From IMG/VR virus record IMGVR_UViG_2925891887_000002: a DNA stretch of 58,711 bases, one strand, 5' to 3'. This document shows positions 16,756 through 51,858 of this stretch, one piece after another (within the stretch, counting starts at the first letter, position 1; every line of letters begins with the position of its first letter). The translations under genes were made by a program, and so were the position numbers. Source of the stretch: a virus. Its lineage: Duplodnaviria > Heunggongvirae > Uroviricota > Caudoviricetes. The notes below the pieces were generated by a model. The model was not told where the DNA came from, ran no database searches, and saw only the letters and a list, made by a program, of their open reading frames with translations.

Positions 16756-18535
<1,780 letters not shown>

Positions 18536-21086: not shown

Positions 21087-21107
21087 GCAATACACACTGC
21101 AATACAC
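21087..21107 (+). repeat. Two GCAATACAC direct repeats, putative integrase arm-type sites (left end)
   Basis: Same 9-mer occurs three times at the int-proximal end. Confidence 0.5.
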
Positions 21108-21194
21108 GATTATTTATAAGATGAGCGGCATCCGTCATAAAGCTGGTGGATGCTTTTTCTATGCATATATGCACAGTTTTAGTGGGCGTTAATG

Positions 21195-21218
21195 TCGATA
21201 TAGGGATCCCCATATCGA
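21195..21218. repeat. Nested palindrome TCGATATAGGGATCCCCATATCGA
   Basis: 7-bp inverted arms flanking a GGATCC core. Confidence 0.4.
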
Positions 21219-21450
21219 GATTGGATACCTGGCTTTTTTCCGGTTAACCTTTAATCAGGCTGGTGGGCTTTACCTGTTTTGTATGAGTGGTCATCATGAC
21301 CATGTCATAACAAAAACCCCATATTCGTGGTTTTTCTGTGTCGGGCTATTCTGTCGTTGCTGTGCTGATTTGGCTGGTGGGCTGAATCATCATTACGGCG
21401 ATGCAGCTATGTAGACGTTCCGGCCTCCTCAAATTGAGGATTGTGGAAGA

Positions 21451-21810
21451 ATCAATGGGTTAGTCTTACTTTCCCGACATCCCCCAATGGGGGTTTTCGA
21501 AACAATCAATAGCTTAGGCTTACTTCCCCGATTTCCTGCATTGCAGGTTTTCGAAATAATCAATGGGTTAGGCCATCGTGCAATTTTGCACTTTGCCAGC
21601 CAGCGCAATGTCGCGTTATCAGTCCTCAGATGTGAGGGATGTAGCCAGCTTTTCCCCCAGTGGGGGATATCCAGCACCGACGGCTTAACTGTGCGTGCCA
21701 GCACAAGGTAGCCTTGAACTACTTACTGCATCCCATCTTACAGGCCGTGCCTTCCTGCTTAACTTTTTGCAATGCAACAAGTCAGCCAGCGCAATTTTGC
21801 GTTATCGGGA
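21451..21810. repeat. Array of 54-bp tandem repeat units and 12 to 14-bp GC-rich palindromes, several followed by T-runs
   Basis: Units at 21451, 21505, 21559; palindromes at 21481, 21535, 21578, 21654, 21790. Confidence 0.7.
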
Positions 21811-21821
21811 ATATCAGCAAG

Positions 21822-22103
21822 TTACCGCCGCAATCGTTCCGGCTTCTTCCACTGGTAAGTATTTTTCGCGCTCTCCCTCCGTTGTTGAGAACGGCGACGA
21901 TATGCCAGCAACTCAAGGACTCTTGTTCGTATGTTGCGCATATCCACGCCGTTAAGCTCAATACCGTCACGGCGCATCACCTCAGCCACTACACGCACAT
22001 AATTATCTGCGGTCACGCTGTCCGGCTGCGTGGCCTGTTCGTCATGCTGCTTGCTGATTCCACAAGCACGGCGGATTAATCGCAGTATTTCGGATTCAGT
22101 CAT
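21822..22103 (-). CDS. Hypothetical protein (satellite)
   Basis: 93-aa ORF just downstream of the terS-like gene, same strand. Confidence 0.4.
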   Translation of the reverse strand: MTESEILRLIRRACGISKQHDEQATQPDSVTADNYVRVVAEVMRRDGIELNGVDMRNIRTRVLELLAYRRRSQQRRESAKNTYQWKKPERLRR

Positions 22104-22114
22104 AGCGTACTACG

Positions 22115-22642
22115 TTACTTATCTTTATTCGGCTGCAACTTATCCGGTACGTTTCCGGCAGTTTCCATCAGATAATCGGACAGCATCAGCGGTATGTTTT
22201 CGTCAAGTTTTGCGCATGCGTTACGGGCTCTGATAACTTCTTTTTTCAGTCCATCCAGCATAGACGGCTTCATGTCGGGAAACTTCCTTGTCATGGCAAG
22301 CGGCAGGCTGTCCATGATTGAAGAAATCTGACTCGCTAGTTTTGAAATCGCGTAGATGCAAAACTTTGTATCAATCACCTCGCCGCGTTCGCGCTCGTTT
22401 TTAAGTTCCTGCGCTTCCGCCTGGGCCGTCATTAATCTGATTCTTACGCGTAAAAGTTCATCATCATCAATCTCGCCTTTGTCGTCTGTAATCTGGTTAA
22501 TTGCATTGCTAACCCGATTGTCTATTACGCTGGCAACATCATAAAACGCCTCGCGGCCTTTACGTTCAACGGGAGTCACTCCCCACTTGTCGAACGCTGT
22601 CGCACTTACACGGCAGCTTTGCGCCATGTTTTTTTTGTTCAT
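22115..22642 (-). CDS. Small terminase (Nu1)-like protein, candidate packaging-redirection factor
   Basis: C-terminal two thirds align with Nu1 at 34333..34878 (RLxxAQAxAQELKN..); N-terminus divergent; start chosen at MNKKNMAQ. Confidence 0.7.
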   Translation of the reverse strand: MNKKNMAQSCRVSATAFDKWGVTPVERKGREAFYDVASVIDNRVSNAINQITDDKGEIDDDELLRVRIRLMTAQAEAQELKNERERGEVIDTKFCIYAISKLASQISSIMDSLPLAMTRKFPDMKPSMLDGLKKEVIRARNACAKLDENIPLMLSDYLMETAGNVPDKLQPNKDK

Positions 22643-22790
22643 CAGGTGCGATTTCATCAATATCCCCACTTAAGTAATGTTTCAGGTTGGTGTATTGGCT
22701 TTATCTTTTCCTTTTTATTCATAGAGATAGAGCGAACAACAAAACCACCACCAGCACCCGAAAAAGGCTCATAAATAGCGAAAACCCGCG

Positions 22791-22802
22791 AGGTCGCCGC
22801 CC
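22791..22802. other. Satellite cosN (12-nt cohesive-end sequence)
   Basis: AGGTCGCCGCCC with lambda-like flanks on the cosQ side, divergent on the cosB side. Confidence 0.8.
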
Positions 22803-22858
22803 CGTAGCCTACCGGATCGCCGGAAAGGACCCGCCAGCCAGAACGGGCCCTAATTTCA

Positions 22859-23263
22859 TCAACCAATCAACTTATAGCGACCATCCCGTGCATTGCGACG
22901 TACACGCTCAATCTTGAGGCATAGCGCCGCATCTGGCTTTTTTGGGACAGGTACGCGGCAATATTCAGAAGATCGAGGAATATTGTTTATCCAGTCGATC
23001 ACTTCACTTAAATACCAGGCCTTACGCCCTTCCGTAACCTGTACGCGTTCGGGGAACTCTCCGCGAGCCTCAAGGTTTAGCAATGTGCGACGGCTAAGGG
23101 TAGTAAGTTCCATCACCTGATTCATATCAACAAGGCGTTCACTTAAACGCATTTTGTCAGCAATAGCCTTTAATTCCTCTACTGCTGGATCCGGATACAT
23201 CATTTCGGCAATTGGCTTAAGGTCATTGTAATGATTCTGCATTGTATCCCCCTTTACACACAA
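22859..23263 (-). CDS. AlpA-like HTH protein with N-terminal extension
   Basis: 134-aa ORF; C-terminal half has an AlpA/excisionase-like motif. Confidence 0.5.
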   Translation of the reverse strand: MCVKGDTMQNHYNDLKPIAEMMYPDPAVEELKAIADKMRLSERLVDMNQVMELTTLSRRTLLNLEARGEFPERVQVTEGRKAWYLSEVIDWINNIPRSSEYCRVPVPKKPDAALCLKIERVRRNARDGRYKLIG

Positions 23264-23595
23264 GCCAGCGGCTGAACAGAAATACCTGAGCCAACAAACG
23301 CGGCAACCTTTGCCGACAGTTCTTTTACAGACTCAGGCCAGTTCAGAGCATCAACATTTAAAACACCTGTCTTATAAACCTGTGCCTGTGTTTTTTTCGC
23401 TGTGTCGATTTGTACAGCGGAAACATAAACCGCTTTACCTACGCTCGAACCATCCCATACCACCAGTGCACCTGTTGCATCTTCCTGCATCAGTGGCGTA
23501 AATGCAGGAATTACCCCTTTATTAGCTGAAAATATCCCCAGCGTAGTCACCAGTGCTTCAGTGCCAGCCATGAGTTCAGTGTAATGAGTAGCCAT
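23254..23595 (-). CDS. Head decoration protein D homologue (satellite)
   Basis: 113 aa; conserved blocks shared with D at 18591..18923 (TPLM..WDG, K(S/T)G..WPE). Confidence 0.7.
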   Translation of the reverse strand: MATHYTELMAGTEALVTTLGIFSANKGVIPAFTPLMQEDATGALVVWDGSSVGKAVYVSAVQIDTAKKTQAQVYKTGVLNVDALNWPESVKELSAKVAAFVGSGISVQPLACV

Positions 23596-23604
23596 TGCTC
23601 CCCC

Positions 23605-24651
23605 TTAGCCAATGCGAACGGTAACAAAACGATTGATGCGGGCCGGTATTGGCTGTGGTGCTGAATGTGTCTGCACATATTCAATAGCCGGATCACCAGG
23701 CACAATATAGTTTTTCGGTGCAAGTTCGGCTTTAGTCAGCCCCATTCGGATTAGCTCCGGATCCTGAATACCGCCATAGGCGACAATCCCCTGAAGAGCC
23801 GTATTGCCAAGCACCATCAAATCAGGATCAAGGAAATGTTTTTCTGTTCCGTCCTCGTCGGTATAACGCCCGCTGTAAACAACAATCGCAACATCGCCCA
23901 TATACCCTTTAAAACTCACCGAATCACCAAGGTCTTTAAGGGCCGTTTCCAGTTCGGAATTAGAACCACGACGGGTATCCAAAGCCTCTTTTATCGCTCT
24001 GAATGAACGGTATTTCTTCCATACATTACCACCCATAATGATGATATTAGTGACGCCCTCACTAAATTCTGCGTAGCTCTCAATATCATCATTTGGATCA
24101 AAAGTTTCTTTATCCTTACCTGACCACTCAGTACCGCCAGACTGAGTGATGATATTTTGTGGTTTTATATTCCAGTCCAGCTCATAACGTTCAATACCAT
24201 CGCCCTCAATGATATTTTTCCCCGTTGTGATTGCCTGAACAGCAAGCCATTCAATACGTGCACGAATAGCTTTAGCCTGATTTACAATCGCCTGTTTAAC
24301 TTTAATATTACGCGCCCCAAAAGCATTGTATTGCTCAGGTGACACACCAGCAGGGCGCACAGCTAACTTATTTGGATCAATGCTGCTTTTCGGCTTCATA
24401 TAACCTGGACGAATTGTTTTTGATTCGTATCCCTCATCTCGTGAAACTTTACTGCCCACCATAGGAGAGCAAAACGCCGCGATCGGGATATTTGGATCGT
24501 CGATCGTATCAAGAATAATGTCTCTCGATTCAAACATTACCGAGCGAGTGAAAAACAAACTGGTAAACAACGCATTTAATTTTTTTTGCACATCTTCAGC
24601 ATTAGCCACCTGCACAAGCTGTGTAGGCGAATATAAATCAACCATACGCAT
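23605..24651 (-). CDS. Major capsid protein E homologue (satellite)
   Basis: Aligns with E along its length (ITQSGGTEWS, DPxDDIE, LDTRRGSNSELETA, AIVVYSG); start chosen at MRMVDLY; ORF extends upstream to 24819. Confidence 0.75.
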   Translation of the reverse strand: MRMVDLYSPTQLVQVANAEDVQKKLNALFTSLFFTRSVMFESRDIILDTIDDPNIPIAAFCSPMVGSKVSRDEGYESKTIRPGYMKPKSSIDPNKLAVRPAGVSPEQYNAFGARNIKVKQAIVNQAKAIRARIEWLAVQAITTGKNIIEGDGIERYELDWNIKPQNIITQSGGTEWSGKDKETFDPNDDIESYAEFSEGVTNIIIMGGNVWKKYRSFRAIKEALDTRRGSNSELETALKDLGDSVSFKGYMGDVAIVVYSGRYTDEDGTEKHFLDPDLMVLGNTALQGIVAYGGIQDPELIRMGLTKAELAPKNYIVPGDPAIEYVQTHSAPQPIPARINRFVTVRIG

Positions 24652-24862
24652 CCTCTTTGCATTCATTAAAAATAATTGTGGATATATGCTATCACCGATA
24701 TTTGTCATGCGAATACATGCAACCGAGTGCAATGTTGTATAAAGTTTTGGGATAACAACTTCAGCGCGGATAATTAGTGTTAATATCTTCACTCCCTTTG
24801 GTCGGGATTTATGTAGCATGCCGGAAAATTTATTTTTTTCCGGCCTTTTTTATTGGCAATAT

Positions 24863-25312
24863 TTAAAACGGAATATCATCTCCCCATTGCTCATTTTCTC
24901 CCACTGGTGGATGGCTTCCTTGCTGATCTGCCTGTTGTTTTGCTCTGTTCAGTGCGTCAGTAGCCTGACCCTGTTGACCTTTTTTGCCGCCCGGTCGCAC
25001 CGTTCGCGCACTGATTACGCTGTCTGCGATAACCTGCCAGCCCTGCCGCGTTTCACCGTTCTGGCCTGTCCACTGTCTTACCTGCATGTTACCCGCCACG
25101 CTCACCAGTTCGCCTTTGTGGTGTTTTGCCAGTGCGTCGGCCTGTCTGCCAAACGCCAGGACGGATAACCACATCGTCGCCGTTCCGTCATCTGCCTGGC
25201 TGCACGGAAGGGGGACCGCCATACTAGCCATCGTCATTTGTGTACCCTTGCTGGTGGTCTTTAACTGCGGGTCAGCCACCAGCCGCCCGTAAGCCGCTAT
25301 CTGTGCTGTCAT
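24863..25312 (-). CDS. ssb: Single-stranded DNA-binding protein
   Basis: 149 aa, OB-fold-like, ends with the SSB acidic tip DDIPF. Confidence 0.7.
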   Translation of the reverse strand: MTAQIAAYGRLVADPQLKTTSKGTQMTMASMAVPLPCSQADDGTATMWLSVLAFGRQADALAKHHKGELVSVAGNMQVRQWTGQNGETRQGWQVIADSVISARTVRPGGKKGQQGQATDALNRAKQQADQQGSHPPVGENEQWGDDIPF

Positions 25313-25560
25313 GCTGTCTGCTCTCCAGTTTTAACGTTGATGGTTGTCACCTGTTCCGCTTCGGCAATCTCCCGTTCTGTCAGCGTGGCAAAGTTTGCCG
25401 CCGTCGTGGTCATGAATGCGCTTATCAGTTCGGGGTGTGCTTTCGCGTATCCTTCCCCAGCGTGGCGGTCTATCGTTCTGATTGCCACCTTTAAGGCGTG
25501 CTCTGTCATGTCTAACGCTTTATATTTTGGCGCTGTCTTATCTCTGGTTTTTCTGGTCAT
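25309..25560 (-). CDS. Hypothetical protein (satellite)
   Basis: 83-aa ORF between ori and ssb. Confidence 0.4.
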   Translation of the reverse strand: MTRKTRDKTAPKYKALDMTEHALKVAIRTIDRHAGEGYAKAHPELISAFMTTTAANFATLTEREIAEAEQVTTINVKTGEQTA

Positions 25561-25765
25561 TCCTCACTGCTCCCCACTTTTACTACCCACTTTTTGAAAT
25601 TACCCAACGTCTCCCCACTTCTTTTTTTTGTGATTCTAACGTGATGTTTTTCAATGTGTTTTTTATTCCCCACTTTTTGGGGTATATACAGGTGGGAAAG
25701 TGGGGAATCACGTTTCAATTTTGTTAAATTCCCCACACTCCCCACTTTTACTACCCACTTTTTAC
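25561..25765. repeat. Putative satellite replication origin with CCCCACT iterons
   Basis: At least eight CCCCACT(T) motifs in both orientations plus AT-rich stretches, directly 3' of the rep gene. Confidence 0.6.
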
Positions 25766-27177
25766 AGTGGGCGCACGTCATCACCGTCAATAGCAATAAC
25801 GCCATCACCTTCCAGCTTGTACAGCCAGCGCCGGAAGTGTTTCATCTCATACCCCAGCTTTTTCATATCATCGCGCAACAACGGAATAGTGCATTTATCT
25901 CCGCGCTGTGTGCGTGAACGGATACAGCCCCATAGCGCGGCATGATTCTCCGTCTTGTTCCCGGCTTCCTCGATGCGCTCCAGTTCAACGGGTGGGCGCG
26001 GCTTATCCACAACAACCAGCGACGTGATTAACTCCCCGTCAGTGTCGGTAAAAAGCTCCACCACACGTAAATCGTATGCGGCCTCTTTCAGTTCCTCCGC
26101 GTCCTTCATTTTTGTGCAGGAGATAACCAGGGCTTCACTGTCTGCACCTTCACGGCGAATACGGTATTCAGCGTCCAGAGATGCACGAAATGCACTGGAA
26201 CCACGCGCCCCCTTTGTTTCATCCTTGCCGGAATGGTGAACCACCAGCACCGTGGCCCCTGTGCGGCGTTTCAGTTCGTCACATCCACGGATAAACGCCC
26301 CCATATCCCGCGCGTCATTTTCATCATTACCGCCAAAGCAACGCGCCAGCGTATCAAGAATAATCATGCGTACCGGTTTACCCGTTTCCCGTTCAACCTG
26401 GCGGGAAGCGATGACCATTTCATCAACATCAAGCGGGACTGCCGGAAAAATCGGGCGGTTTACCAGGTACAGATTTTCCACCCGTTCATCATTAACGATT
26501 TCCCATGCCTTGATACGGCGGGGGACACCAATGCCACCTTCACCGACAACATACATCACCGAACCATGCGCCACCCTGCGGCCTCCCCAGTGACGGCCAG
26601 TGGCAACATGACACGCCCAGGAACACGCGAGGAACGATTTATAGGAACCGCTCGCGCCGTATGTGCTGCACAATGAATTAGCCGGAATCACGCCCTTAAC
26701 GACATAATCAAGCTGTGTGTCGTACCCTGCAGATCCAATGCTCATTGGTAGCGTGGTTTTTCGCTGGCTGTATTGCTCGTCAGTAAGTATTTCCCCGCGC
26801 TCTGCCTGTTCGCGGATCCGTTGCAGGTAGTCGTGCCAGTTCTCCAGCTTCTGGCTGTGCATTCCATCAGGGTAATAATTCGCATCCCGTACACCTGCCG
26901 CCGCCAGCTTTTGCCCGATAGCATTAATATTTGACGGCTTGATGTGGCCTGCCTTGTACAGCCGGACACAATAGCGACCATCGTCGATAATTTTCAGGTC
27001 TGCCAGTTCGTCAAGCTGGCTGTCTCCCAGCCATACAGGCGGGACGTTATCACCAGCAAGTCGCCCGTCCTGTTCCTGCCACTGTTTCGCGTGCGCCCAG
27101 GCATCACTACCCGCAAAAATAATGACTTCGGTCATTTTGTCGTGTGGCTGTTTTTTTAAGTTCGGTGCCAGTTTCAT
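25762..27177 (-). CDS. Replication initiator ATPase (RepA/AAA_25-like helicase with primase-like N-terminus)
   Basis: 471 aa; Walker A GASGSYKS; ILDTLARCF and LVVHHSGK motifs. Confidence 0.7.
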   Translation of the reverse strand: MKLAPNLKKQPHDKMTEVIIFAGSDAWAHAKQWQEQDGRLAGDNVPPVWLGDSQLDELADLKIIDDGRYCVRLYKAGHIKPSNINAIGQKLAAAGVRDANYYPDGMHSQKLENWHDYLQRIREQAERGEILTDEQYSQRKTTLPMSIGSAGYDTQLDYVVKGVIPANSLCSTYGASGSYKSFLACSWACHVATGRHWGGRRVAHGSVMYVVGEGGIGVPRRIKAWEIVNDERVENLYLVNRPIFPAVPLDVDEMVIASRQVERETGKPVRMIILDTLARCFGGNDENDARDMGAFIRGCDELKRRTGATVLVVHHSGKDETKGARGSSAFRASLDAEYRIRREGADSEALVISCTKMKDAEELKEAAYDLRVVELFTDTDGELITSLVVVDKPRPPVELERIEEAGNKTENHAALWGCIRSRTQRGDKCTIPLLRDDMKKLGYEMKHFRRWLYKLEGDGVIAIDGDDVRPL

Positions 27178-27473
27178 TTTTTGCCCCTGAATGCGTTAAT
27201 CATGTTTTTCATTTTCTGAATATTTGCCCGTGCCTTTGCGTTGCTGGTGGGCTGTTTGCGTGGTGTGGCCTGTATCAGTGAAAAATCACGCCGGAACTGA
27301 TAAGCAGGCATCACGCAGTCATAGCCGTACCCATCACGGCGGTAAGTAACGCACCGCCCCGCCACGCTTTTAATCGTTACCGTGCCACCGTAGTTATCCC
27401 GGAAAATATCGCCGGGGCGGATTTCAGGCCGAGGGAGACCACTGGCAGTAAAGCCAGAATTTTTCTGTTTCAT
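27174..27473 (-). CDS. Hypothetical protein
   Basis: 99-aa ORF. Confidence 0.4.
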   Translation of the reverse strand: MKQKNSGFTASGLPRPEIRPGDIFRDNYGGTVTIKSVAGRCVTYRRDGYGYDCVMPAYQFRRDFSLIQATPRKQPTSNAKARANIQKMKNMINAFRGKK

Positions 27474-27479
27474 GTTTTT

Positions 27480-27698
27480 TTACTCCAGAGGCAGATTTTT
27501 AGCGGCGAGTTCAATATCAGATGTCAGAGAAACCTGTGTATTTGCCAGGTCTAACAACAAAGAAATAAGAATTTCCTCTCTGCTATCGGATTCATCGGTG
27601 CTAAGGCTGTTCATCCACATATTGACGACTTCCCTGATTTTTTTCGCAGAGTGCAGGGCTTCAAATGCCAGGTCTTCAATATCATGTTTATTTCGCAT
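27480..27698 (-). CDS. Hypothetical small protein
   Basis: ORF from internal Met MRNKHDIEDL. Confidence 0.3.
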   Translation of the reverse strand: MRNKHDIEDLAFEALHSAKKIREVVNMWMNSLSTDESDSREEILISLLLDLANTQVSLTSDIELAAKNLPLE

Positions 27699-27900
27699 AA
27701 TCGCCCCCGCGTAACTGGTCTGCACTAACACCCGATTTAGTGAGCATTTCAGAAAATCCCGCAAGAGTGCTGATAAATTCGTTTTCCATTAAACGGCACT
27801 GGCATTTAACCCGGCCTTTTTCCAGATACACCAGTACGCGCCACGTATAATCTGACGGCACATTCAGCACTACAGATAAGTGCGCTTCATTATTATTCAT
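27688..27900 (-). CDS. Hypothetical small protein
   Basis: 70-aa ORF. Confidence 0.35.
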   Translation of the reverse strand: MNNNEAHLSVVLNVPSDYTWRVLVYLEKGRVKCQCRLMENEFISTLAGFSEMLTKSGVSADQLRGGDYAK

Positions 27901-28129
27901 GGCTCACCACCTCCATATCAGCCATGATAATTTTGCTGGCCTCATTCAGTGCCATATCAGCACTAAGTTGCATTACAGCCAGTGAATGAGGAACGAAAGC
28001 CCCGGCATATTCTGTTTCACTGGTAGCGTGCTTATGCGCCCTGTCCGCGATAACAGAAATATCAATCAGCGCATCAATCAGTGTTTTGATTGCTTCGGCG
28101 GCTGCGTCCGGACGGGTGTTATTGCACAT
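27893..28129 (-). CDS. Hypothetical small protein
   Basis: 78-aa ORF. Confidence 0.35.
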   Translation of the reverse strand: MCNNTRPDAAAEAIKTLIDALIDISVIADRAHKHATSETEYAGAFVPHSLAVMQLSADMALNEASKIIMADMEVVSHE

Positions 28130-28325
28130 GGTGCACCCCCTGACGAATACGGGCGGCGAATACCATCACGCAGCCAGCCGGTGATTGCTGACGGGCTTCC
28201 TGTTCGCTGGTGGCCTCAATGGTAATCACGCGCGGTTGTGCCGTACTCAGGGCGATAAAACGCCAGATGTATTTATTCAGGTTGTGCGAGCCCCGCCCTT
28301 GCGGGTGTGTGGTATGATTTCTCAT
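28119..28325 (-). CDS. Hypothetical small protein, first gene of the leftward satellite operon
   Basis: 68-aa tail of a longer spurious ORF, starting at ATG 28323..28325 next to the operator region. Confidence 0.35.
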   Translation of the reverse strand: MRNHTTHPQGRGSHNLNKYIWRFIALSTAQPRVITIEATSEQEARQQSPAGCVMVFAARIRQGVHHVQ

Positions 28326-28422
28326 AGCTACCTCGATACTGTTGCTATCGTTGGTGGTTAGAAGCCCGGTTAGTGTTAGCGCACTGCCGGGTTTCGTCGT
28401 TTCTGCACCTTGCACCAACAAG

Positions 28423-28474
28423 GTGTTGAACACCAATTTAAACCCAGGTGTTGAACACGTCAAGTGTTGAACAC
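28423..28474. promoter_or_regulatory. Three direct repeats of GTGTTGAACAC in a divergent promoter region (putative operators)
   Basis: Repeats at 28423, 28448 and 28464 between divergent small genes. Confidence 0.55.
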
Positions 28475-28524
28475 TTGTTTTTTTTCCTGCATACTGCATT
28501 TGTTTTTTGTGAGGGGTACACAAC

Positions 28525-28704
28525 ATGGCGACAAAAGCAGTAAACGCAAAATCACAAACAGTTGCGGCAAGGGTTCCGCATGAAGTTATGAACAATGTTG
28601 AGGCGGTAAAAATGCCTGGTGAAAGTACAGGGCAGTTTGTAACAGCAGCATTAAAGCGAGAAGTTGAATACCGCCAGCGACGCAAGGCTAAAGAGCAAGA
28701 ATAA
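28525..28704 (+). CDS. Small putative DNA-binding regulator
   Basis: 59-aa ORF (not in the track) with GAGGGG Shine-Dalgarno 8 nt upstream. Confidence 0.45.
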   Translation: MATKAVNAKSQTVAARVPHEVMNNVEAVKMPGESTGQFVTAALKREVEYRQRRKAKEQE

Positions 28705-28761
28705 TCACTATCAGCGCTGTGGTGTGAGGTACTCCGGCGCATTGCTTTACAGGTCGGCACT

Positions 28762-28971
28762 ATGAGCAAAAAATACCTATCCACTGAAGAGATTTTCGCA
28801 GAACAACGAAGATTGCTTTTACAGAGCATTGTTGCACGCCAGAAAGAAAAGGCACACGCTAAACAAATGCCACCAAATACAGAACCAGCGCCTACAAAAT
28901 TTGCGCTTGATGAGTTTCTCAATAAACAGCCCCGGGTAATGAAAGCTAACAGGAACCGCCCACCAGGCTGA
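28762..28971 (+). CDS. Hypothetical small protein
   Basis: 69-aa ORF downstream of the regulator. Confidence 0.4.
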   Translation: MSKKYLSTEEIFAEQRRLLLQSIVARQKEKAHAKQMPPNTEPAPTKFALDEFLNKQPRVMKANRNRPPG

Positions 28972-29067
28972 TCACATTGCCCACCAGCCGCAAATGTGGC
29001 ATTGTTGGTGATGCTTTTGTTTTCCCTTGTTCCCACTGGCGACCCTTTTGCGGTCGCCTTTGTTTTG

Positions 29068-29646
29068 TCACTGAATGCGGTTACCAAAGTAAAACTCAGG
29101 CTGATATTCACGTATCAGCGTTTTTTCTTCTTCCTCCAGCTCACGCTTTTTGCGCTTACATGCCTGTAGCTCCCTCCCCTTCTCGCTGGCACTTATTTGA
29201 TATTGCTCTTTACGGCGGGAAAAATCCTGTAATGCACCCCACGGGATACCATAAGCCCCCGTTTTTCTGATACCCGGTATCACATTTCTGAATACCCAGT
29301 TACTGAAACGATGAGCAAATGTGCCAGGCGTCGTTGCTTTGCGGCTGCGGGCTATTAGTTTGTAGAAACCTGACTCAGAGATAATTCTCATATTCTGATT
29401 TCCTCCTGGGGTGTAAGTTAAATTTACTCCCTTTTCATCATCATCAAGCATCTGCAACGCCGTACGCGAATTGGTTAGTTCCAGCACAGCACAAACATCT
29501 TTTGCAACAAACCACGGATCGCCGTTCAGATACACCACACGAACGTTCACACTATCAAAGCGCAGAACGACGAGATCACGAATATCGCAGAATTTTTTCA
29601 CTGGACGAGCGTACCCCTTGCCCGTCACGGCAATATTTTTATTCAT
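29068..29646 (-). CDS. Bro-N domain protein (antirepressor-like)
   Basis: 192 aa; N-terminal motif VRVVYLNGDPWFVAKDV typical of Bro-N. Confidence 0.65.
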   Translation of the reverse strand: MNKNIAVTGKGYARPVKKFCDIRDLVVLRFDSVNVRVVYLNGDPWFVAKDVCAVLELTNSRTALQMLDDDEKGVNLTYTPGGNQNMRIISESGFYKLIARSRKATTPGTFAHRFSNWVFRNVIPGIRKTGAYGIPWGALQDFSRRKEQYQISASEKGRELQACKRKKRELEEEEKTLIREYQPEFYFGNRIQ

Positions 29647-29663
29647 CGCGTTTTTACCTTATA

Positions 29664-29690
29664 GACAAAAAACCCCTCGTGATGAGGGGC
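29664..29690 (-). terminator. Rho-independent terminator downstream of alpA
   Basis: CCCCTC..GAGGGG hairpin followed by a T-run on the minus strand. Confidence 0.55.
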
Positions 29691-29702
29691 ATTATTTACT
29701 GG

Positions 29703-29960
29703 TTATTGCTGTTTTGTTTTTCCAGGTTTCCATCCAGGATGCCACTCACCACGGATCCATGCCTGAACCTCTGAAAGTCGATACCCTGCAGCACGTTCAC
29801 CGATCTTGATACGTCGCGGGAATTTACCTGCCTGCTCCATTTTCCAGCGTGTTGAGTTTGCCAGCGTGGTAAGTGCTATGCACTCTTTTTCACGAATGAA
29901 CCGATCAATGTCCTTCATTGTGCGCAAATCGTTTTCATCAACAAGAGAATAAATTGCCAT
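29703..29960 (-). CDS. alpA: AlpA-family regulator / excisionase
   Basis: 85 aa, AlpA motif, directly downstream of int. Confidence 0.75.
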   Translation of the reverse strand: MAIYSLVDENDLRTMKDIDRFIREKECIALTTLANSTRWKMEQAGKFPRRIKIGERAAGYRLSEVQAWIRGEWHPGWKPGKTKQQ

Positions 29961-29961
29961 A

Positions 29962-31203
29962 TCACACCACCTCTTTATTAAGCTCGATAACGTTGTTGTT
30001 AAATCCTGCTATCGTATTAAGGTAATTAACCCATATATTAAGCACCTCAAGTTTTTTCTTTATATGCCTGCTTTTATTGTAAACACCAGCAACCCCTTTC
30101 ACTTTATGACCTAAAAGAAGTTCGACAATATAAGGATCCGCCCCCATATCATTAAGCGTAGTGGAAAATGTGCGCCTGAAATCATGTATGCACCACAAGC
30201 CATTAGTATCATGACCAAGACGCCTGCATATTCTGTTTGCAGCCCCTGTTATTGTCGCCCTTTGCAAAGCACAACCGACAACATAACCGCGATTTTTTGT
30301 TTCTGCGTAAAGATTAACGATCCATTGTTTTATTCCGTCAGGAACAGGCCTTACTATAGCCTCCTTGTTTTTGCTGTGCTCTTTTGGGACTGTCCATACC
30401 CAGTTTTTTAAATCCCATTCGTCCCAGGTGGATAGCCTCGCCTCCTGCTGTCGGCAACCAAACACCAGGCAGATAACCATTATTCTTCGGTTATATATTG
30501 ATGACAGAGTTAGCAAATTATTACCGTAAGCATAAGACCATACATCAGCGGTTTCATTGATATTAAGAACGCGATCCCTTATACCGGATGAGCGCCCGAC
30601 ATAACTTACGTTAATATCTCCAAAGGGATCGCACGCGATGTATTGCCTGACGCGACAAAAACGCAACGCCTGTTTGATATCAAGAAAAATTGCACCAGAC
30701 ATAACAGGCGCATTTTTTTTGATCCTGTCAAAGACGGTAAGCCATGTGTGTAATTTGCACTGTTCTATAGCCATATCACCGATATAGGGGAAGATATGCT
30801 TTTCAAATCGTTTTATTAAATATTCATGCTCTTTTCTGGCTGTTGTGGCGTGATTGTCGTACCAGTAAAACAGCGCATCCCTTACGGTCACTGGTTGCAT
30901 AGTTTTTTCGGCAGCAAGTTTTATTTGCCTGCGGGGGTCCAGATTTTCAGCCAGCCATTCACGGCACTGATCACGCATGCGCCTGGCCGTTGCAAGAGAC
31001 ATGTCAGGATAGCGACCAAGTGTAAGCCATACCGGAGGGGATTCCCTGCCACCAAGACGATAGTAAAAAACAAAGCTGATCCCCCCAACCATGCTTACAC
31101 GCACAGACAACCCGCGCCCATCCGCTATTGTTTTTTGTTTGTCCTGCCGTTTTCCGACAAGACTCTTTAACAGTTTGTCACTGAGTTTGTTTTCAATAGC
31201 CAT
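29962..31203 (-). CDS. int: Tyrosine integrase (P4/PICI-type)
   Basis: 413 aa; C-terminal HDFRRTF and LLGH..Y catalytic motifs. Confidence 0.85.
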   Translation of the reverse strand: MAIENKLSDKLLKSLVGKRQDKQKTIADGRGLSVRVSMVGGISFVFYYRLGGRESPPVWLTLGRYPDMSLATARRMRDQCREWLAENLDPRRQIKLAAEKTMQPVTVRDALFYWYDNHATTARKEHEYLIKRFEKHIFPYIGDMAIEQCKLHTWLTVFDRIKKNAPVMSGAIFLDIKQALRFCRVRQYIACDPFGDINVSYVGRSSGIRDRVLNINETADVWSYAYGNNLLTLSSIYNRRIMVICLVFGCRQQEARLSTWDEWDLKNWVWTVPKEHSKNKEAIVRPVPDGIKQWIVNLYAETKNRGYVVGCALQRATITGAANRICRRLGHDTNGLWCIHDFRRTFSTTLNDMGADPYIVELLLGHKVKGVAGVYNKSRHIKKKLEVLNIWVNYLNTIAGFNNNVIELNKEVV

Positions 31204-31223
31204 TAAAAGCCCTCAAGAGATTT

Positions 31224-31274
31224 GCAATACACACCCATCCCGATCGCCAATTTGCAATACACATTGCAATACAC
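31224..31274 (+). repeat. Three GCAATACAC direct repeats, putative integrase arm-type sites (int-proximal)
   Basis: Copies at 31224, 31254 and 31266. Confidence 0.5.
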
Positions 31275-31399
31275 AAAACCGCGAAAAACTGGAAGGGTGA
31301 TGAACGGTCATCAAAAGCATGGAAAACGACATTCCAGACGCAGCAAGGGTTTCAGTGGAGTTGGCGAACGATGCGGGCAACTACGGTGAGATGATAGAC

Positions 31400-34332
<2,933 letters not shown>

Positions 34333-37206: not shown

Positions 37207-37665
37207 TTATTTCAGGCATTGCGTCCTGATGTATTCCTGCAGGTAGTTAACCTGCGCGGTTATCTTGTCGATTCCACTTCGGAGACGGTAATAATTGAGT
37301 TCAGCATCTGCTGTAAGTCCTGGGCTTTCTCCATCGCCCATGCCGCTGGCTCCGGTCGTAGACTTTGCACAGGTGGCGGCGACTTGCAGGCGCTTACGCC
37401 CAGCAGAAACATCAGCACGGAGACTTTCGATAGTCGCGTTAGCATCAGCAAGCTCCTTTGTGTATCTTGCGTCGAGTTCTGCTACATCACGTTGACGCTT
37501 CCGCATGTCAGCGATGGTAGCGTTCGCCTTCTCCAGTTCACTGGCCTTGTTATCGCGCTGCTCTTTGTAGGCGATTGCGTTATCACGGTAATGATTAACA
37601 GCCCATGACAGGCAGACGATGATGCAGATAACCAGAGCGGAGATAATCGCGGTTACCCTGCTCAT
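37207..37665 (-). CDS. Rz: Spanin inner-membrane subunit Rz
   Basis: Start at [14 protein letters not shown]; lambda Rz-like. Confidence 0.9.
37260..37451 (-). CDS. Rz1: Spanin outer-membrane lipoprotein Rz1, nested in Rz
   Basis: 63-aa nested ORF with lipobox (VSAC) and Pro-rich region. Confidence 0.75.
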
Positions 37666-38159
37666 TGTTGCCCCCACAAACAGACCTCACGCTCAATCTC
37701 ACGACGAGTCATCAGGCCTTTCCATTGCTTACCGCCAGCGTATGCCCAGCGACGTAGCTGGTCACATGCGCCCTTGATATCGCCCTGGTTTATTTTGCGA
37801 AGAAGAGTAGATGTTCTGAAATTGCCTGCGCCCACGTTATAGACGAACGAGTAAAGAGCGCCGCGCGTTGTTTCCGGTATATCGACTTTGATGTACGGGT
37901 TAATTTGTCTGGCGACCGTGGCAAGGTCTTTATTCAAGAGTGTTTTGCATTCTGCTTTGGTATACGTTTTACCGAGTATGATGTCTTTTCCTGTATGCCC
38001 GTGACATACAGTCCATACACCAACAATATCTTTGTATGGTATGTAGCTGACACCTTCCAGACCATCGTTACCACTTGGGCCAGTAATTAACACTGATGCT
38101 ATAGCAATTGCTCCGCCACCAATAGCAGCAGCAACGGCTTTTCGTAATGATGGAGGCAT
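37662..38159 (-). CDS. R: SAR endolysin (phage 21 R-type lysozyme)
   Basis: 165 aa with Gly/Ala-rich N-terminal signal-anchor-release segment. Confidence 0.85.
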
Positions 38160-38374
38160 TATTCACCTCTCGCAGCCTTGCGCTTATCTTCTTTAATCTT
38201 GAAATAAAGGTTTGTCAGGTACGTCAGCAGGCCAAATACCAAGCTACCCAGCACACCTATTGCTGCCCACTGTGAGGGCGTGACTTTATCGAGCAGCTGT
38301 AAAAACCAGTAGCCAGCACTGCCTGCGGAGGTGCCGTAGGCAATGCCCGTTGTTAACTTATCCATGGATTTCAT
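38159..38374 (-). CDS. S: Pinholin (phage 21 S-type)
   Basis: 71 aa with dual-start MKSMDK, two TM segments. Confidence 0.85.
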
Positions 38375-38561
38375 AGCCTCACCTCCGCAAATAACGGATG
38401 GTGTACACGGTTCGGAACGAAGAGGAAAGGTATAGAAGTTACATTAGCGTAAGGCTTGAACATCTATTCAAAAAGAAAAACGCCGCGATTATTCTGGCGT
38501 AGCTGAAAGCATCATACAATTATCAAATACGAAAATTACAAAATCATTAAAACGCATCACG

Positions 38562-39149
38562 TTACATCATGTCTTTTTCTAAAAAAAATCTTGATGAATA
38601 TTGATGGGGAGGAACACCAAAATACCTTCTGAAAACACTTACAAAATATGACGTGTTTTCATAACCGCATATCTCAGCAACTTTTCCAACAGAATATAAA
38701 TTGTAGCTTAATAATCTTTCCGCCATCACCATTCGCTCTTCAAGAATTAACTTACTAAATGATAAGCCTTCGTGCTTTAATTTTCTTTTTAACAGACTTT
38801 CACTCAGATACAGTCTTGAAGATATATCACAAAGTCTCCATGCTGCAGATATATCCGTGTGAATAATAGCCTTAACTTTACTTCCTAAACTATTAAGACA
38901 TCCAAATAAAAAACTTTGCACTATTTTCTCTGAAGATAAGATAGCAAGACATGCAAGTGATATTTGATTTCTAACAAAATCCACAGTTCTGCCATCACAA
39001 TTCAAGCATGCAATCAAGTTCTTTAACAATGAAAAATCTTCACATTCCACCATCAAGTATGCCGGATAAAACCTTCTTACAGAAAAAGGTGAGAGTGTGT
39101 TGCTTTTAAAGAAATCATTAACTGTTTTTTCTTCAACATCTACGATCAT
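38562..39149 (-). CDS. AraC-family transcriptional regulator
   Basis: 195 aa; C-terminal AraC-type HTH; AT-rich context. Confidence 0.7.
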   Translation of the reverse strand: MIVDVEEKTVNDFFKSNTLSPFSVRRFYPAYLMVECEDFSLLKNLIACLNCDGRTVDFVRNQISLACLAILSSEKIVQSFLFGCLNSLGSKVKAIIHTDISAAWRLCDISSRLYLSESLLKRKLKHEGLSFSKLILEERMVMAERLLSYNLYSVGKVAEICGYENTSYFVSVFRRYFGVPPHQYSSRFFLEKDMM

Positions 39150-39643
39150 TACATGATCTATATTTGATGAAAAAAATCTTTTAAATTGTAATCAATGAGA
39201 ACAGCATTTCCTTTTTTAAACAAAATATCTTCTTTACCAATTCGGACATCAAACGAATTCAACACCAAAATGATAGAACATATGTATGGCATATTATCCA
39301 CCTGATATCATTGGGGTTACACCAGGTAAGTATAGGTGGAAAATCAATATTCGCCAGTTCAACAATAAGGAAAATTTCATTACATCACAAGTATAAAATT
39401 ATGTATTTAACTCACAAAGACAAATTATTAAACCAATCTGTTATATTATATATAGCTGCGTGGAATCATAATATTATATATTTTGACTGGCATGTTTACC
39501 AACTTTAAGTTGCATCTCAATTGTTTCTTCAGCGTAAACAGAGTTTTTATACAAACTGACACTCTGGGTATCATAGTGTAGTTTTTACGATTGTAAATAT
39601 CCTGCATGCAGGAACTCATCCTTTTGGATGATATCGCATACAA

Positions 39644-40603
39644 TTAATTTACCATCAGTCTTAGAGCCAGTTCGTCCGGATAGGGATCGAAGTAATTCTG
39701 TGTAAGCAAGTAATCATTAGGATACTCACCCAGATAATGCTTCAGCAGAGTCAACGGCGCAAGAAGAGGTAATGTGCCAGAACGATAGTTAAGTATAACC
39801 TCGCTCAACTCTTTACGCTGGCGTGTACTTAAGTAGTTACTAAAATACCCCTGTATATGCATCAGCACATTCGTGTGATTTTTACGTGATGCAGGTTTTC
39901 TGAGAATCGCCATCAGCTTATCACGATACACCTCAAAGTATGATTCAAGGTCCGCCCACTCGTGTATTGCAGCCACAAATGGTCCCATATCTTTATAGCC
40001 TGCCTGACTATGCGCCAACAACTGAAGCTTATAACGACTATGAAAAGCTAATAACTCTCTTCTTGATAATTTCTCCTTGTAAAGGTGATTGAGCTCATGC
40101 AAAGCAAAAACTCTTTCAACAAAATTCTCACGAAGCACTGGATCATGTAATCGCCCATCCTCTTCAACCGGTAGCCAGGAAAACTTTTCCATCAAAGTGC
40201 TCGTAAATAGTCCCACTCCATCTTTACGACCTCGATTACCATTTTCATCATAGACACGCACGCGCTCCATGCCACAGCTGGGAGATTTAGCACAAACCAC
40301 AAACCCCGATACATCCTTTAATTTGTCCATATAAGAACGACTAAACTCTGTCATTCTCTCTGTCACATCCTCATTCTGGTCGTGGCTGAAACACATCCGT
40401 ATATTTCCTTGCATCGAGCGCACAAGACGTAGAGCAGGACGCGGAACTGGCAGCCCTATAGCCATTTCCGGACATACTGGTCTGAATGTTACCCATTCCA
40501 CTAATTTGTCCATTAAAAAGTCAGCTCTTTTGTGACCACCATCAAAACGAACAGCAGAACCGGCCAAACAACCGCTGATTCCAATCACAGGTTTTTTTAT
40601 CAT
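39644..40603 (-). CDS. DUF523/DUF1722 fusion protein (YbgA/TudS-like)
   Basis: 319 aa; Cys-containing N-terminal domain. Confidence 0.6.
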   Translation of the reverse strand: MIKKPVIGISGCLAGSAVRFDGGHKRADFLMDKLVEWVTFRPVCPEMAIGLPVPRPALRLVRSMQGNIRMCFSHDQNEDVTERMTEFSRSYMDKLKDVSGFVVCAKSPSCGMERVRVYDENGNRGRKDGVGLFTSTLMEKFSWLPVEEDGRLHDPVLRENFVERVFALHELNHLYKEKLSRRELLAFHSRYKLQLLAHSQAGYKDMGPFVAAIHEWADLESYFEVYRDKLMAILRKPASRKNHTNVLMHIQGYFSNYLSTRQRKELSEVILNYRSGTLPLLAPLTLLKHYLGEYPNDYLLTQNYFDPYPDELALRLMVN

Positions 40604-40795
40604 ATTCTCCCCCTTGACTAATTCATTAACACATAAACTGTGTAGTGCACGGAATAAATTGCCTTTCTGGCGTCATCACTGACAATTTTTCTGTTATGGA
40701 CTATTCCTAATATAGTATGAAAGTTCTTTAAGTGATCGGTCGTAATCATCTATCTTTCATACTTACTCTCAACTATCAAAAGTACAGGATTTATT

Positions 40796-41320
40796 ATGAA
40801 GTTATGGCCTGTGTTGACTGGCATTGCACTCTCTTTCACTCTTATAGCATGTAAGGCCCCGACACCACCTAAAGGTGTGCAGCCGATTACAAATTTTGAC
40901 GCCAACCGCTACCTCGGAAAATGGTATGAAATAGCTCGCCTCGAGAACCGGTTCGAACGTGGTCTGGAACAGGTCAGCGCTACTTATGGAAAACGGAACG
41001 ACGGAGGGATTCGTGTACTTAACCGTGGATACGATCCAACGAAAAATAAATGGAGCGAGAGCGAAGGTAAAGCATACTTTACTGGAGATACTAAAACTGC
41101 AGCATTGAAGGTTTCGTTTTTTGGCCCCTTCTATGGTGGCTATAATGTAATCAAACTGGATGATGAGTATAAGTATGCTCTTGTCAGTGGTCCGAACAGA
41201 GAATACCTATGGATTCTGGCAAGGACCCCAACTATTCCAGATAAAGTAAAAGCAGACTATGTGCGAACCGCTCAAAAGTTGGGATTCAATGTCAATGAAT
41301 TATTATGGGTTAAACAATAA
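40796..41320 (+). CDS. blc: Bacterial lipocalin (Blc-like outer-membrane lipoprotein)
   Basis: 174 aa; lipobox; NFDANRYLGKWYEIAR and YFGPFYGGYNVI motifs. Confidence 0.8.
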   Translation: MKLWPVLTGIALSFTLIACKAPTPPKGVQPITNFDANRYLGKWYEIARLENRFERGLEQVSATYGKRNDGGIRVLNRGYDPTKNKWSESEGKAYFTGDTKTAALKVSFFGPFYGGYNVIKLDDEYKYALVSGPNREYLWILARTPTIPDKVKADYVRTAQKLGFNVNELLWVKQ

Positions 41321-41346
41321 AATCCCTACCCGAAATAATACTTATT

Positions 41347-41376
41347 AGAAAAAAACCAGCCTTTGGGGAGGCTGGC
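41347..41376 (-). terminator. Rho-independent terminator downstream of Q (tR'-like)
   Basis: CCAGCCT..AGGCTGG hairpin followed by an 8-nt T-run on the minus strand. Confidence 0.6.
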
Positions 41377-41475
41377 TAAATCAGGAAACAAGCTGTTATA
41401 TGATAATAACTACGTTGTGATTCCAACATTTAAAATGTTAGACTAATGACAATCAGACAGCAACTTTTCCTTTAA

Positions 41476-41868
41476 TTATTTCGAACAATCAGCATCCATC
41501 TCCAATCGGAGATCCAACACCATCAGCATACCCTCCACTACGCCCTCAGCTTTCTGAAGCATCCTGCCAACCCAACAATCAGATCGCCCATGCTTACGTG
41601 CAAGCGCCATAAAAGTCATGCCGCCGACATAATAGTCCACCAATAAATCATGCAAATCGCTGTTGTTCTTTTTCAGACGGGCCATGCACCCGCAAATGAT
41701 CATCGCGTCATCGTCACAACATTGTGGGCGAGATTTTACTTTTGAAGGAATTAATCCCTTAAAACCGGCGGCAATGGACGACCAGGTCACATCTTCATGA
41801 TTATTAGCCGCCCACGCTCCCCAACGCTCAAGAACCATCTGAATATCACGCATCAACTTACTCCACAA
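41476..41868 (-). CDS. Q: Late antiterminator Q (DLP12 QuuD-type)
   Basis: 130-aa ORF, close match to QuuD as recalled. Confidence 0.8.
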
Positions 41869-41937
41869 AACTCAGACCAGAACGCCAATTACAAGCAAAA
41901 ATCAACAAAACAGTATTAGTTGATTGTTATCTCTGAC

Positions 41938-42078
41938 TTCATACTCCTGCTCCTGTCAGTGTTTTGGCGTAATTCTTCAGTATTCGGTAATCGGTCAAAA
42001 CAGAACCGGGGAAACGATATAAGCGCAGACGCCCCCAGCGGTGGCGAAGAAGTTCTGCCATATTAAACTCAAACATCA
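41938..42078 (-). CDS. ylcG: YlcG-like small protein
   Basis: 46-aa ORF (below track threshold) between rusA and Q. Confidence 0.6.
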
Positions 42079-48466: not shown

Positions 48467-48742
48467 GTGGCTTCTGTTTCTATCAGCTGTCCCTCCTGTT
48501 CAGCTACTGACGGGGTGGTGCGTAACGGCAAAAGCACCGCCGGACATCAGCGCTATCTCTGCTCTCACTGCCGTAAAACATGGCAACTGCAGTTCACTTA
48601 CACCGCTTCTCAACCCGGTACGCACCAGAAAATCATTGATATGGCCATGAATGGCGTTGGATGCCGGGCAACTGCCCGCATTATGGGCGTTGGCCTCAAC
48701 ACGATTTTACGTCACTTAAAAAACTCAGGCCGCAGTCGGTAA
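48467..48742 (+). CDS. insA: IS1 InsA
   Basis: 91 aa, InsA match. Confidence 0.9.
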
Positions 48743-49164
48743 CCTCGCGCATACAGCCGGGCAGTGACGTCATCGTCTGCGCGGAAATGGACGAACAGTG
48801 GGGCTATGTCGGGGCTAAATCGCGCCAGCGCTGGCTGTTTTACGCGTATGACAGGCTCCGGAAGACGGTTGTTGCGCACGTATTCGGTGAACGCACTATG
48901 GCGACGCTGGGGCGTCTTATGAGCCTGCTGTCACCCTTTGACGTGGTGATATGGATGACGGATGGCTGGCCGCTGTATGAATCCCGCCTGAAGGGAAAGC
49001 TGCACGTAATCAGCAAGCGATATACGCAGCGAATTGAGCGGCATAACCTGAATCTGAGGCAGCACCTGGCACGGCTGGGACGGAAGTCGCTGTCGTTCTC
49101 AAAATCGGTGGAGCTGCATGACAAAGTCATCGGGCATTATCTGAACATAAAACACTATCAATAA
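48661..49164 (+). CDS. insB: IS1 InsB frame (expressed as InsAB' by -1 frameshift)
   Basis: InsB match; A6C slippery motif TTAAAAAACTC at about 48716. Confidence 0.85.
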
Positions 49165-51621: not shown

Positions 51622-51693
51622 GTGCGGTTTTACCGCATACCAATAACGCTTCACTCGAGGCGTTTTTCGTTATGTATAAATAAGGAGCACACC

Positions 51694-51858
51694 ATGCAAT
51701 ATGCCATTGCAGGGTGGCCTGTTGCTGGCTGCCCTTCCGAATCTTTACTTGAACGAATCACCCGTAAATTACGTGACGGATGGAAACGCCTTATCGACAT
51801 ACTTAATCAGCCAGGAGTCCCAAAGAATGGATCAAACACTTATGGCTATCCAGACTAA
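51694..51858 (+). CDS. cIII: cIII
   Basis: 54 aa from MQYAIAGWPVAGCPSES, lambda cIII match. Confidence 0.9.
   Translation: MQYAIAGWPVAGCPSESLLERITRKLRDGWKRLIDILNQPGVPKNGSNTYGYPD

Follow-up and report, generated by a model that had tools for sequence, protein, structure and literature searches.

We analysed the interval between the antiterminator gene Q and the holin gene of a lambda-like prophage in IMG/VR record IMGVR_UViG_2925891887_000002, a stretch of 58,711 nucleotides (hereafter the window) that adjoins ybhC and has most of its genes on the minus strand. The 3.1-kb interval contains a blc-like lipocalin gene on the plus strand and, both on the minus strand, rudS, which encodes a fusion of DUF523 and DUF1722, and a gene of the AraC family. 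Along the direction of late transcription, Q is followed by a 155-bp spacer, the lipocalin gene on the opposite strand, a 192-bp spacer, rudS, a 351-bp AT-rich spacer, the AraC-family gene, a 187-bp spacer, and the genes for a P21-type holin, a lysozyme and Rz. An earlier note on this DNA had described the region as about 3 kb of AT-rich accessory cargo between Q and the lysis gene S, made up of three host-like genes. This description holds, as the three open reading frames (ORFs) were recovered with identical coordinates, the GC content of the module is 37.9% compared with 50.4% for the whole window, and homology to the cryptic prophage DLP12 breaks off at both ends (see below). Within the module, GC content is 43.8% in blc, 43.3% in rudS, 31.3% in araC and 32–34% in the internal spacers. 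We also agree with the note on orientation: rudS and the AraC-family gene share the minus strand with Q and the holin gene and are thus co-oriented with late transcription, and the lipocalin ORF (40796–41320, plus strand) is antisense to it.

The flanking genes belong to the phage. Q (41476–41868, minus strand) encodes an antiterminator of the QuuD/DLP12 type (PF06530, E = 2.5e-51) with a distant match to the Q21 structures 6P18/6JNX; the Prokaryotic Genome Annotation Pipeline (PGAP) places its start at 41853, which gives a shorter protein of 125 amino acids. The lysis cassette (37207–38374, minus strand) consists of the P21-type holin (38159–38374), lysozyme (37662–38159) and Rz (37207–37677) genes. 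The late region of DLP12 from E. coli K-12 (rusA-ylcG-quuD ... essD-rrrD-rzpD) is a close relative of that in the window, and its rusA-quuD segment is 94% identical to the Q region of the window at the nucleotide level. This homology ends at 41494, within the last codons of Q, and restarts at 38385, 11 nucleotides before the start of the holin gene. The intervening part of DLP12 is occupied by the porin pseudogene nmpC, likewise antisense to late transcription. Because of this gap in homology, and because nmpC is found there instead, the 3.1 kb can be seen as exchangeable cargo in the classical variable slot that separates Q from the lysis genes. The lc gene of phage PA-2 is a further cargo of this slot. 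In Shiga toxin (Stx) phages the same slot is the site of stx (PMC6266700, PMC7547250). The position between conserved phage modules, the deviating GC content and the presence of alternative cargo in a related phage are features of a moron, and in our preferred explanation, which we consider probable as a whole, positions 38386–41493 are a mosaic cargo (“moron”) cassette in the Q–holin slot of a DLP12-type late region.

The central gene of the cassette, rudS (39644–40603, minus strand), encodes 319 amino acids of the tRNA 4-thiouridine desulfidase family. Both Pfam domains match over the full length of their profiles: PF04463 at residues 7–149 (E = 4.5e-40) and PF08349 at residues 192–309 (E = 5.8e-41); PF04463, formerly DUF523, is now named “2-thiour_desulf” (2-thiouracil desulfurase). 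The earlier note had recognized the two domains correctly and had missed that the function of the fusion is known, since a 2024 study reported proteins of this architecture as RudS, [4Fe-4S] enzymes that turn the 4-thiouridine (s4U) of tRNA back into uridine (PMC11417400; Jamontas et al., Nucleic Acids Research 2024). One of the six RudS genes assayed in that work, RudS_vir, is gp66 (H3V29_gp66) of Escherichia phage 1H12, and the window protein is identical to it at 298 of 319 positions (93%). The cysteines expected to hold the cluster, C12, C44 and C110, are identical in the alignment to Cys12/44/110 of RudS_vir, taken from Table 1 of PMC11417400, and Glu46, Arg55, Ser107 and Ser109 correspond, in their register relative to the cysteines, to the catalytic residues E51, R60, S111 and S113 of RudS_KT. 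By these sequence features, the DUF523/DUF1722 protein is RudS, a predicted [4Fe-4S] tRNA 4-thiouridine desulfidase.

What is known of the orthologue leaves some room for another substrate. When overexpressed in E. coli, RudS_vir lowered the s4U content of tRNA, less than the other RudS enzymes did and despite good protein levels, and in a uracil auxotroph it gave the shortest lag on 4-thiouracil among the RudS variants (PMC11417400). Since its tRNA desulfidation is low and its lag on 4-thiouracil the shortest, tRNA may not be the sole or main substrate of RudS_vir. The phage enzyme might then act mainly on free thiolated bases or nucleotides, salvaging or detoxifying 4-thiouracil and 4-thio-UMP in the way of TudS instead of erasing a tRNA modification; the catalytic domain of RudS, being a TudS domain, is consistent with this idea. 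However, all RudS variants cut s4U from tRNA and none of them supported growth on thiouracils as TudS did (PMC11417400), and in the window protein the tRNA-binding domain DUF1722 is of full length and under purifying selection. We therefore consider a main role in free-base metabolism quite unlikely and retain the tRNA eraser as the preferred function. With regard to physiology, overexpressed RudS_KT lessened the growth delay caused by near-ultraviolet (near-UV) light (PMC11417400).

The lipocalin gene (174 amino acids) encodes a Blc-like outer-membrane lipoprotein (Lipocalin_2, E = 7.2e-44) that passes the NCBIfam model for “outer membrane lipoprotein Blc”, NF007786, with 316 bits against a cutoff of 267. 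Its signal, as read from the translation, is MKLWPVLTGIALSFTLIAC followed by K, with the lipobox L16-I17-A18-C19 and Lys, not Asp, at position +2. The match to E. coli Blc (PDB 3MBT) is strong (E = 3.5e-69) at only 64% identity; by comparison, the rudS-linked lipocalins of Enterobacter, Leclercia and Citrobacter sedlakii are 77–82% identical to the window protein. Most likely, Blc helps to maintain the envelope of the lysogen. The divergent blc–rudS spacer (40604–40795, 192 bp), where the promoters of both genes are presumed to lie, is about 90% conserved among cassette alleles and contains one promoter-like match directed toward rudS (40772 to 40745). It could not be aligned with the blc–rudS spacers of Citrobacter chromosomes, and this comparison yielded no conserved regulatory motif. 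The spacer also contains a 43-codon ORF (40618–40749, minus strand) that ends 13 nucleotides before the rudS start; it is an annotated coding sequence in phage IdasGreatGrand and stops after 31 codons in the 1H12 and Qin-type alleles. This ORF is probably spurious, and could be a leader peptide.

The third gene was correctly assigned to the AraC family in the earlier note. The 195-amino-acid ORF at 38562–39149 is the 3′ part of a 243-codon gene (38562–39292, minus strand) and keeps the C-terminal helix-turn-helix domain (Pfam HTH_18, E = 6.5e-15; HTH_AraC, 1e-11), in which a double helix-turn-helix is recognizable. A run of seven T residues at 39170–39176, which has eight in intact alleles, causes a −1 frameshift that leads to a TAG at 39158–39160, so that the gene in the window is a pseudogene; PGAP likewise labels it “frameshifted” in a genome that is 100% identical here. 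The intact 243-residue form is a full-length homologue, at 32–35% identity, of GadW (34%), AppY (32%) and YdeO (32%). It falls in the clade of these regulators and GadX, and the best PDB match is the DNA-binding domain of GadX. Orthology to YdeO or GadX was rejected because the scores fall under the NCBIfam equivalog cutoffs (112.7 bits against 348 for YdeO and 98.7 against 500 for GadX), which leaves the protein as a relative only. A relative with 52% identity is found at the tail-fibre end of other prophages.

To place this allele among its relatives we used IMG/VR, in which 127 stretches encode a relative; the IMG/VR locus counts were taken over the 80 loci kept. The AraC-family gene is intact in 61 of the 80 loci, split or partial in 15 and absent from 4, and it is intact in phages 1H12 and IdasGreatGrand. 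The T tract is eight residues long in 43 of these related loci (L076–L155), seven in 7, six in 2 and nine in 1. Slipped forms occur together with either state of a nearby indel, which shows slippage to be recurrent; this may be no more than decay, or may act as a contingency switch. A cluster of 195-residue proteins with 623 member sequences shows that the truncated allele is genuine and occurs widely. Where the gene is intact, its product most likely engages in cross-talk with stress regulons of the host, to judge by other AraC-like regulators of prophages: PatE, PsrA and PsrB of enterohaemorrhagic E. coli rewire acid-resistance regulons of the host (PMC10877973). The AT-rich spacer upstream of araC (39293–39601, minus strand, approximately 32% GC) is poorly conserved, with 65–68% identity and indels among cassette alleles.

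The earlier note had envisaged that these genes might prove to be a common, characterised part of their phage lineage. That is largely what they are, with the central gene characterised and the whole 3.2 kb present at ≥80% coverage in 987 of 5426 complete E. coli genomes as well as in isolated phages. Matches to rudS occur in 1135 of the same 5426 genomes, 1063 of them nearly full length, and are almost always chromosomal and always prophage-borne. The cassette is found in 12 phage records, including that of the isolated, plaque-forming phage IdasGreatGrand, at 99% identity. All 80 IMG/VR loci contain blc and rudS, and 73 of them have the full order Q-blc-rudS-araC-holin-lysozyme; PHROG families 1450, 3275 and 2809 represent the cassette. 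The comparison with Q–S regions of other lambdoid prophages that the note had proposed was informative: besides the nmpC cargo of DLP12, it showed the same cassette travelling with Q and the holin gene in at least two backgrounds, lambda/DLP12-like and Qin-like prophages. A further occurrence is on two short contigs (L055 and L060; JARKOR010000151.1 and JARKOR010000135.1) of a metagenome-assembled genome of “Candidatus Nanosynbacter” that carry Q, blc, rudS, araC, holin and lysozyme genes with mostly 94–100% identical proteins (araC 82.5% against the 1H12 allele); their presence in that bin is almost certainly contamination.

Distribution and substitution patterns bear on whether the cluster is merely neutral, decaying DNA that hitch-hikes between two essential phage modules. 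Signs of decay do exist. The AraC-family gene is frameshifted in the window and damaged in the 15 loci mentioned above, some genomes have insertion sequences (IS) within the cassette, and the terminator-like hairpin before the holin gene has lost one nucleotide in the window. However, the ratio of nonsynonymous to synonymous substitution (dN/dS) between alleles is 0.06–0.20 for blc, 0.11–0.24 for rudS and 0.21–0.34 for araC, all well under 1 among alleles with dS of 0.2–0.4, which indicates that all three genes are under purifying selection (overall range, 0.06–0.34). Moreover, almost every locus examined has rudS and blc undamaged, and the cassette persists across prophage backgrounds and in a phage that forms plaques. 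We regard neutral hitch-hiking as very improbable and the interval, as before, as a selected cargo cassette.

The closest RudS proteins outside E. coli are 66–76% identical to that of the window and are encoded on the chromosomes of Citrobacter, Enterobacter, Leclercia, Kluyvera, Klebsiella and Pectobacterium. In 42 of 64 enterobacterial loci, rudS is preceded by a divergently oriented Blc-like gene. In Citrobacter sedlakii no other gene separates the two, as in the phage. In Enterobacter they are separated by genes for a MerR/MlrA-type regulator and a transthyretin-like protein. In Citrobacter braakii, rudS follows a cluster of amine-oxidase, DUF1365, cyclopropane-fatty-acid (CFA) synthase, DUF2878 and DUF3833 genes that resembles the light-responsive operons described for RudS (PMC11417400). 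C. braakii ATCC 51113 has two rudS copies (L003 and L004), both 76% identical to the window protein, and the former lies beside a gene for an SOS-response-associated peptidase (SRAP). No donor closer than 76% for RudS or 82% for Blc was found. Linkage of the AraC-family gene to rudS was not found outside E. coli prophages among the loci compared, and its GC content is very different; we therefore rejected the notion that it was part of a captured chromosomal module and consider the cassette itself to be mosaic, consisting of a captured blc-rudS pair and a regulator from elsewhere.

We then considered how the cassette might be transcribed. A hairpin (41354–41377) lies 33 nucleotides past the blc stop codon and about 100 nucleotides after Q, with a 9-bp stem (AGCCAGCCU/AGGCUGGUU) and a loop of 6 nucleotides. 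On the minus, or late, strand it is followed by a run of seven U residues and is called as an intrinsic terminator (41347–41377), the sole one called by the consensus scan in 38100–42000; its fold has a free energy of −14.9 kcal/mol (z = −3.35). The plus-strand fold reaches −13.3 kcal/mol and is followed by AAAUCAGG, which has no U tract. The earlier note had pointed to this strong hairpin and had called it bidirectional in appearance. The hairpin is there; the bidirectional reading was rejected, because in the absence of a plus-strand U tract it is a canonical terminator one way only, for transcripts from the Q side. It may still weakly stop blc transcripts from the other side. The element is matched in 78 of 80 loci, in which variation is confined to the length of the T run and, in 3 loci, one base of the loop. 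By analogy with lambda and Stx phages, it is most likely the tR′-type terminator of a constitutive late promoter; the pR′ of stx phages fires constitutively, and in lysogens its transcripts end just past the promoter (PMC7547250). The Q-dependent late promoter pR′ and the Q-utilisation site would be predicted to lie between Q and the terminator, in the segment 41378–41475 (minus strand), which has a 10-bp inverted repeat at 41422–41442. If the late promoter is constitutive, an RNA of about 80 nucleotides that ends at the tR′-like terminator would be expected in lysogens (41349–41428). The equivalent short RNA of Stx phages is a regulatory small RNA (PMC7547250).

Two weaker structures lie downstream on the late strand. 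A stem-loop just after the rudS stop codon (39602–39643; −20.5 kcal/mol, z = −4.4) has a poor U tract (UAUUUAC), was not among the calls of the terminator scan and may either terminate weakly or stabilise the RNA. Before the holin gene, a hairpin with a T run was found by eye at 38470–38500. In the common allele its stem has 7 bp (ACGCCAG/CUGGCGU) followed by U5CU5; the 1-nucleotide deletion in the window reduces the stem to 5 bp, and the folds have −12.1 kcal/mol in the common allele compared with −8.1 kcal/mol in the deleted form, with modest z-scores. It is matched in 73 of 80 loci, with the full stem in 57 and the deleted form in 16, and DLP12 has an analogous hairpin and T run upstream of essD. 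Between the tR′-like hairpin and S, the late strand has no terminator called by the consensus scan, and an Rfam scan of the whole window gave no hit within the cassette.

These elements suggest the following scheme. E. coli makes s4U at tRNA position 8 (s4U8) through ThiI. As the species lacks a chromosomal copy of rudS, lysogeny would add an s4U eraser: the [4Fe-4S] cluster of RudS would convert 4-thiouridine at position 8 to uridine, as for its 93%-identical orthologue, and the lysogen would suffer less near-UV cross-linking of tRNA and less growth delay. In the lysogen, rudS and blc would probably be transcribed from their own divergent promoters and transcription would stop before the lysis genes, which the weak pre-holin terminator would shield. 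Upon induction, RNA polymerase modified by Q would pass both terminators, read antisense through blc and co-transcribe rudS with the lysis genes, as happens for stx; an intact araC would be included. Such Q-dependent read-through of rudS is reasonable because rudS and araC are co-oriented with late transcription and because of the scan result just described; by analogy with the stx genes (PMC6266700, PMC7547250) we consider it plausible.

The same elements can be accommodated differently. The cassette might be purely a lysogenic-conversion module that is expressed from its own promoters only, with late read-through being incidental or, as antisense transcription of blc, harmful. The antisense position of blc, shared with nmpC in DLP12, fits this view, as does the conserved terminator-like element between cargo and holin gene, which is sensible only if cargo promoters fire in lysogens; so does the persistence of the cassette under purifying selection in many defective prophages, including that of the window. 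On the other hand, rudS and araC have the late-strand orientation in every background examined, Q-modified polymerase would be expected to proceed through both terminators whatever the “purpose”, and the own promoters on which this alternative depends are themselves only presumed. It is a possible reading to which we give distinctly less credence than to dual expression. The best explanation overall, a mosaic cargo cassette with a tRNA s4U eraser expressed from its own promoters and by Q-dependent read-through, is one we hold to be likely. A more specific version would make blc-rudS a portable module for protection from near-UV and photo-oxidative damage, captured from enterobacterial chromosomes and under dual control, in which RudS serves as an s4U eraser in the lysogen and, driven by Q upon UV induction, strips the light-sensitive s4U8 from tRNA, with the T8 tract in araC as an on/off switch by slippage; taken jointly, these propositions are unlikely to be all correct.

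Several points weigh against the explanation that we favour. The best candidate for pR′, TTGCTG (41463–41458) and TAACAT (41440–41435) with a 17-nucleotide spacer, is weak: it agrees with the consensus at only 8 of 12 positions, and its −10 element differs in the 1H12 allele. Alignment with the region downstream of DLP12 quuD gave only the short common motifs TAATTAA, TTGNT and ATATAACAG, and a distant-similarity search of phage records for the pR′ region returned only phages with the same cassette. For the cargo promoters, the two best sigma-70-like matches of the region point at araC (39597 to 39570 and 39502 to 39473, each at 10 of 12 positions); the scan gave 13 matches against 11.7 expected from shuffled sequence and, as this is not above expectation, cannot serve as evidence. 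No LexA box (CTGT-N8-ACAG with at most one mismatch) was found in the intergenic regions of the cassette, so there is no sign of SOS control; the sole LexA-like site, with one mismatch, falls inside the rudS coding sequence (40575–40590). The late promoter, the own promoters, Q read-through and a benefit to phage or lysogen are predictions from sequence, the low tRNA activity and short 4-thiouracil lag of RudS_vir leave its main substrate in some doubt, and the AraC-family gene is inactive in the window. Finally, a late-phase role is moot for virion production in this strain, since the prophage is defective for morphogenesis and cannot make virions.

This last conclusion comes from the interruption of both the portal and the capsid gene. 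The lambda-type portal gene is split (20233–21015 and 31400–32233) by an island of about 10.4 kb (21016–31399) that has its own integrase (29962–31203), a RepA-like helicase (25762–27177), Icd-like, BRO-N and SSB genes, a gene resembling that of major capsid protein E (23605–24819), a head-decoration gene and a Nu1-like small terminase gene (22115–22669). The island looks like a capsid-forming phage satellite, akin to phage-inducible chromosomal islands (PICI-like), integrated in the prophage. The lambda-E-like major capsid gene contains a 1277-bp insertion (16700–17976) with an IS110-family transposase ORF (16805–17785, minus strand; PF01548 and PF02371), which is the only large difference from E. 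coli 22AR0322 (NZ_CP195467.1), otherwise 99.99–100% identical. A copy of IS1 (48467–49164) lies between two rex-like genes downstream of the cI-like repressor gene, and the N gene follows about 650 bp further on. Elsewhere in the window, Rfam detected IS009 at 44–242 (minus strand, 223.6 bits), within an ORF that matches the tail-fibre assembly gene of the record (window 1–585), and the lambda cIII thermoregulator element at 51681–51739 (plus strand, 88.5 bits).

Most of what we describe is already known and largely ordinary: the gene families are known, annotations of the cassette exist for hundreds of genomes and several phage records, and the key orthologue is characterised. The literature that we searched offered nothing on the cassette as a whole or on a role of RudS in phage biology. 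In recent literature it has been stated that E. coli lacks RudS (PMC13602947, PMC11417400). K-12 indeed has none, yet about one in five sequenced strains does carry the gene, and work on s4U and near-UV physiology in natural isolates needs to reckon with prophage-borne rudS. An eraser of a tRNA modification in a Q-controlled slot also leads to a testable hypothesis, that the phage remodels host tRNA during UV-triggered induction.

Among characterised systems, the one closest to the window is phage 1H12. Its RudS_vir shares with the window protein the two-domain architecture, the length of 319 amino acids, the cysteines and the catalytic Glu, Arg and Ser residues, and its cassette, with approximately 89% nucleotide identity, has the same Q–S position. 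The differences are 21 substitutions in RudS and the location of the window copy in a defective prophage; the study of RudS_vir did not describe its genomic context or a role in phage biology (PMC11417400). Chromosomal rudS loci, including ORF319 of Salmonella SPI-2 (RudS_ST, under a MerR-family regulator), encode proteins in the 66–76% identity range given above, and in Enterobacteriaceae they are linked to stress- or light-type clusters (PMC11417400). In contrast, the phage cassette lacks the MerR/MlrA-type regulator and transthyretin-like genes of Enterobacter and has an unrelated, low-GC AraC-type gene downstream instead.

The lipocalin has the Lipocalin_2 domain, lipobox signal and length of E. 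coli Blc (PDB 1QWD, 2ACO and 3MBT) and differs from the chromosomal protein in belonging to the rudS-linked paralogue group. The regulator shares full-length homology and a low GC content with GadW, AppY and YdeO, of which AppY is also prophage-borne; it is set apart by its place in the Q–S slot and its frameshift in the window, and its 52%-identical relative occupies a different place, at the tail-fibre end. Like PatE, PsrA and PsrB, it is an AraC-like regulator borne on a prophage. With respect to position, the nearest parallels are the cargo genes of other lambdoid late regions. Like blc, nmpC of DLP12 is antisense in its slot. In Stx phages, stx sits in the same slot, preceded by Q, pR′ and tR′ and followed by the holin gene; there the cargo is of different content, is co-oriented with late transcription as rudS and araC are here, and has a demonstrated dependence on Q.

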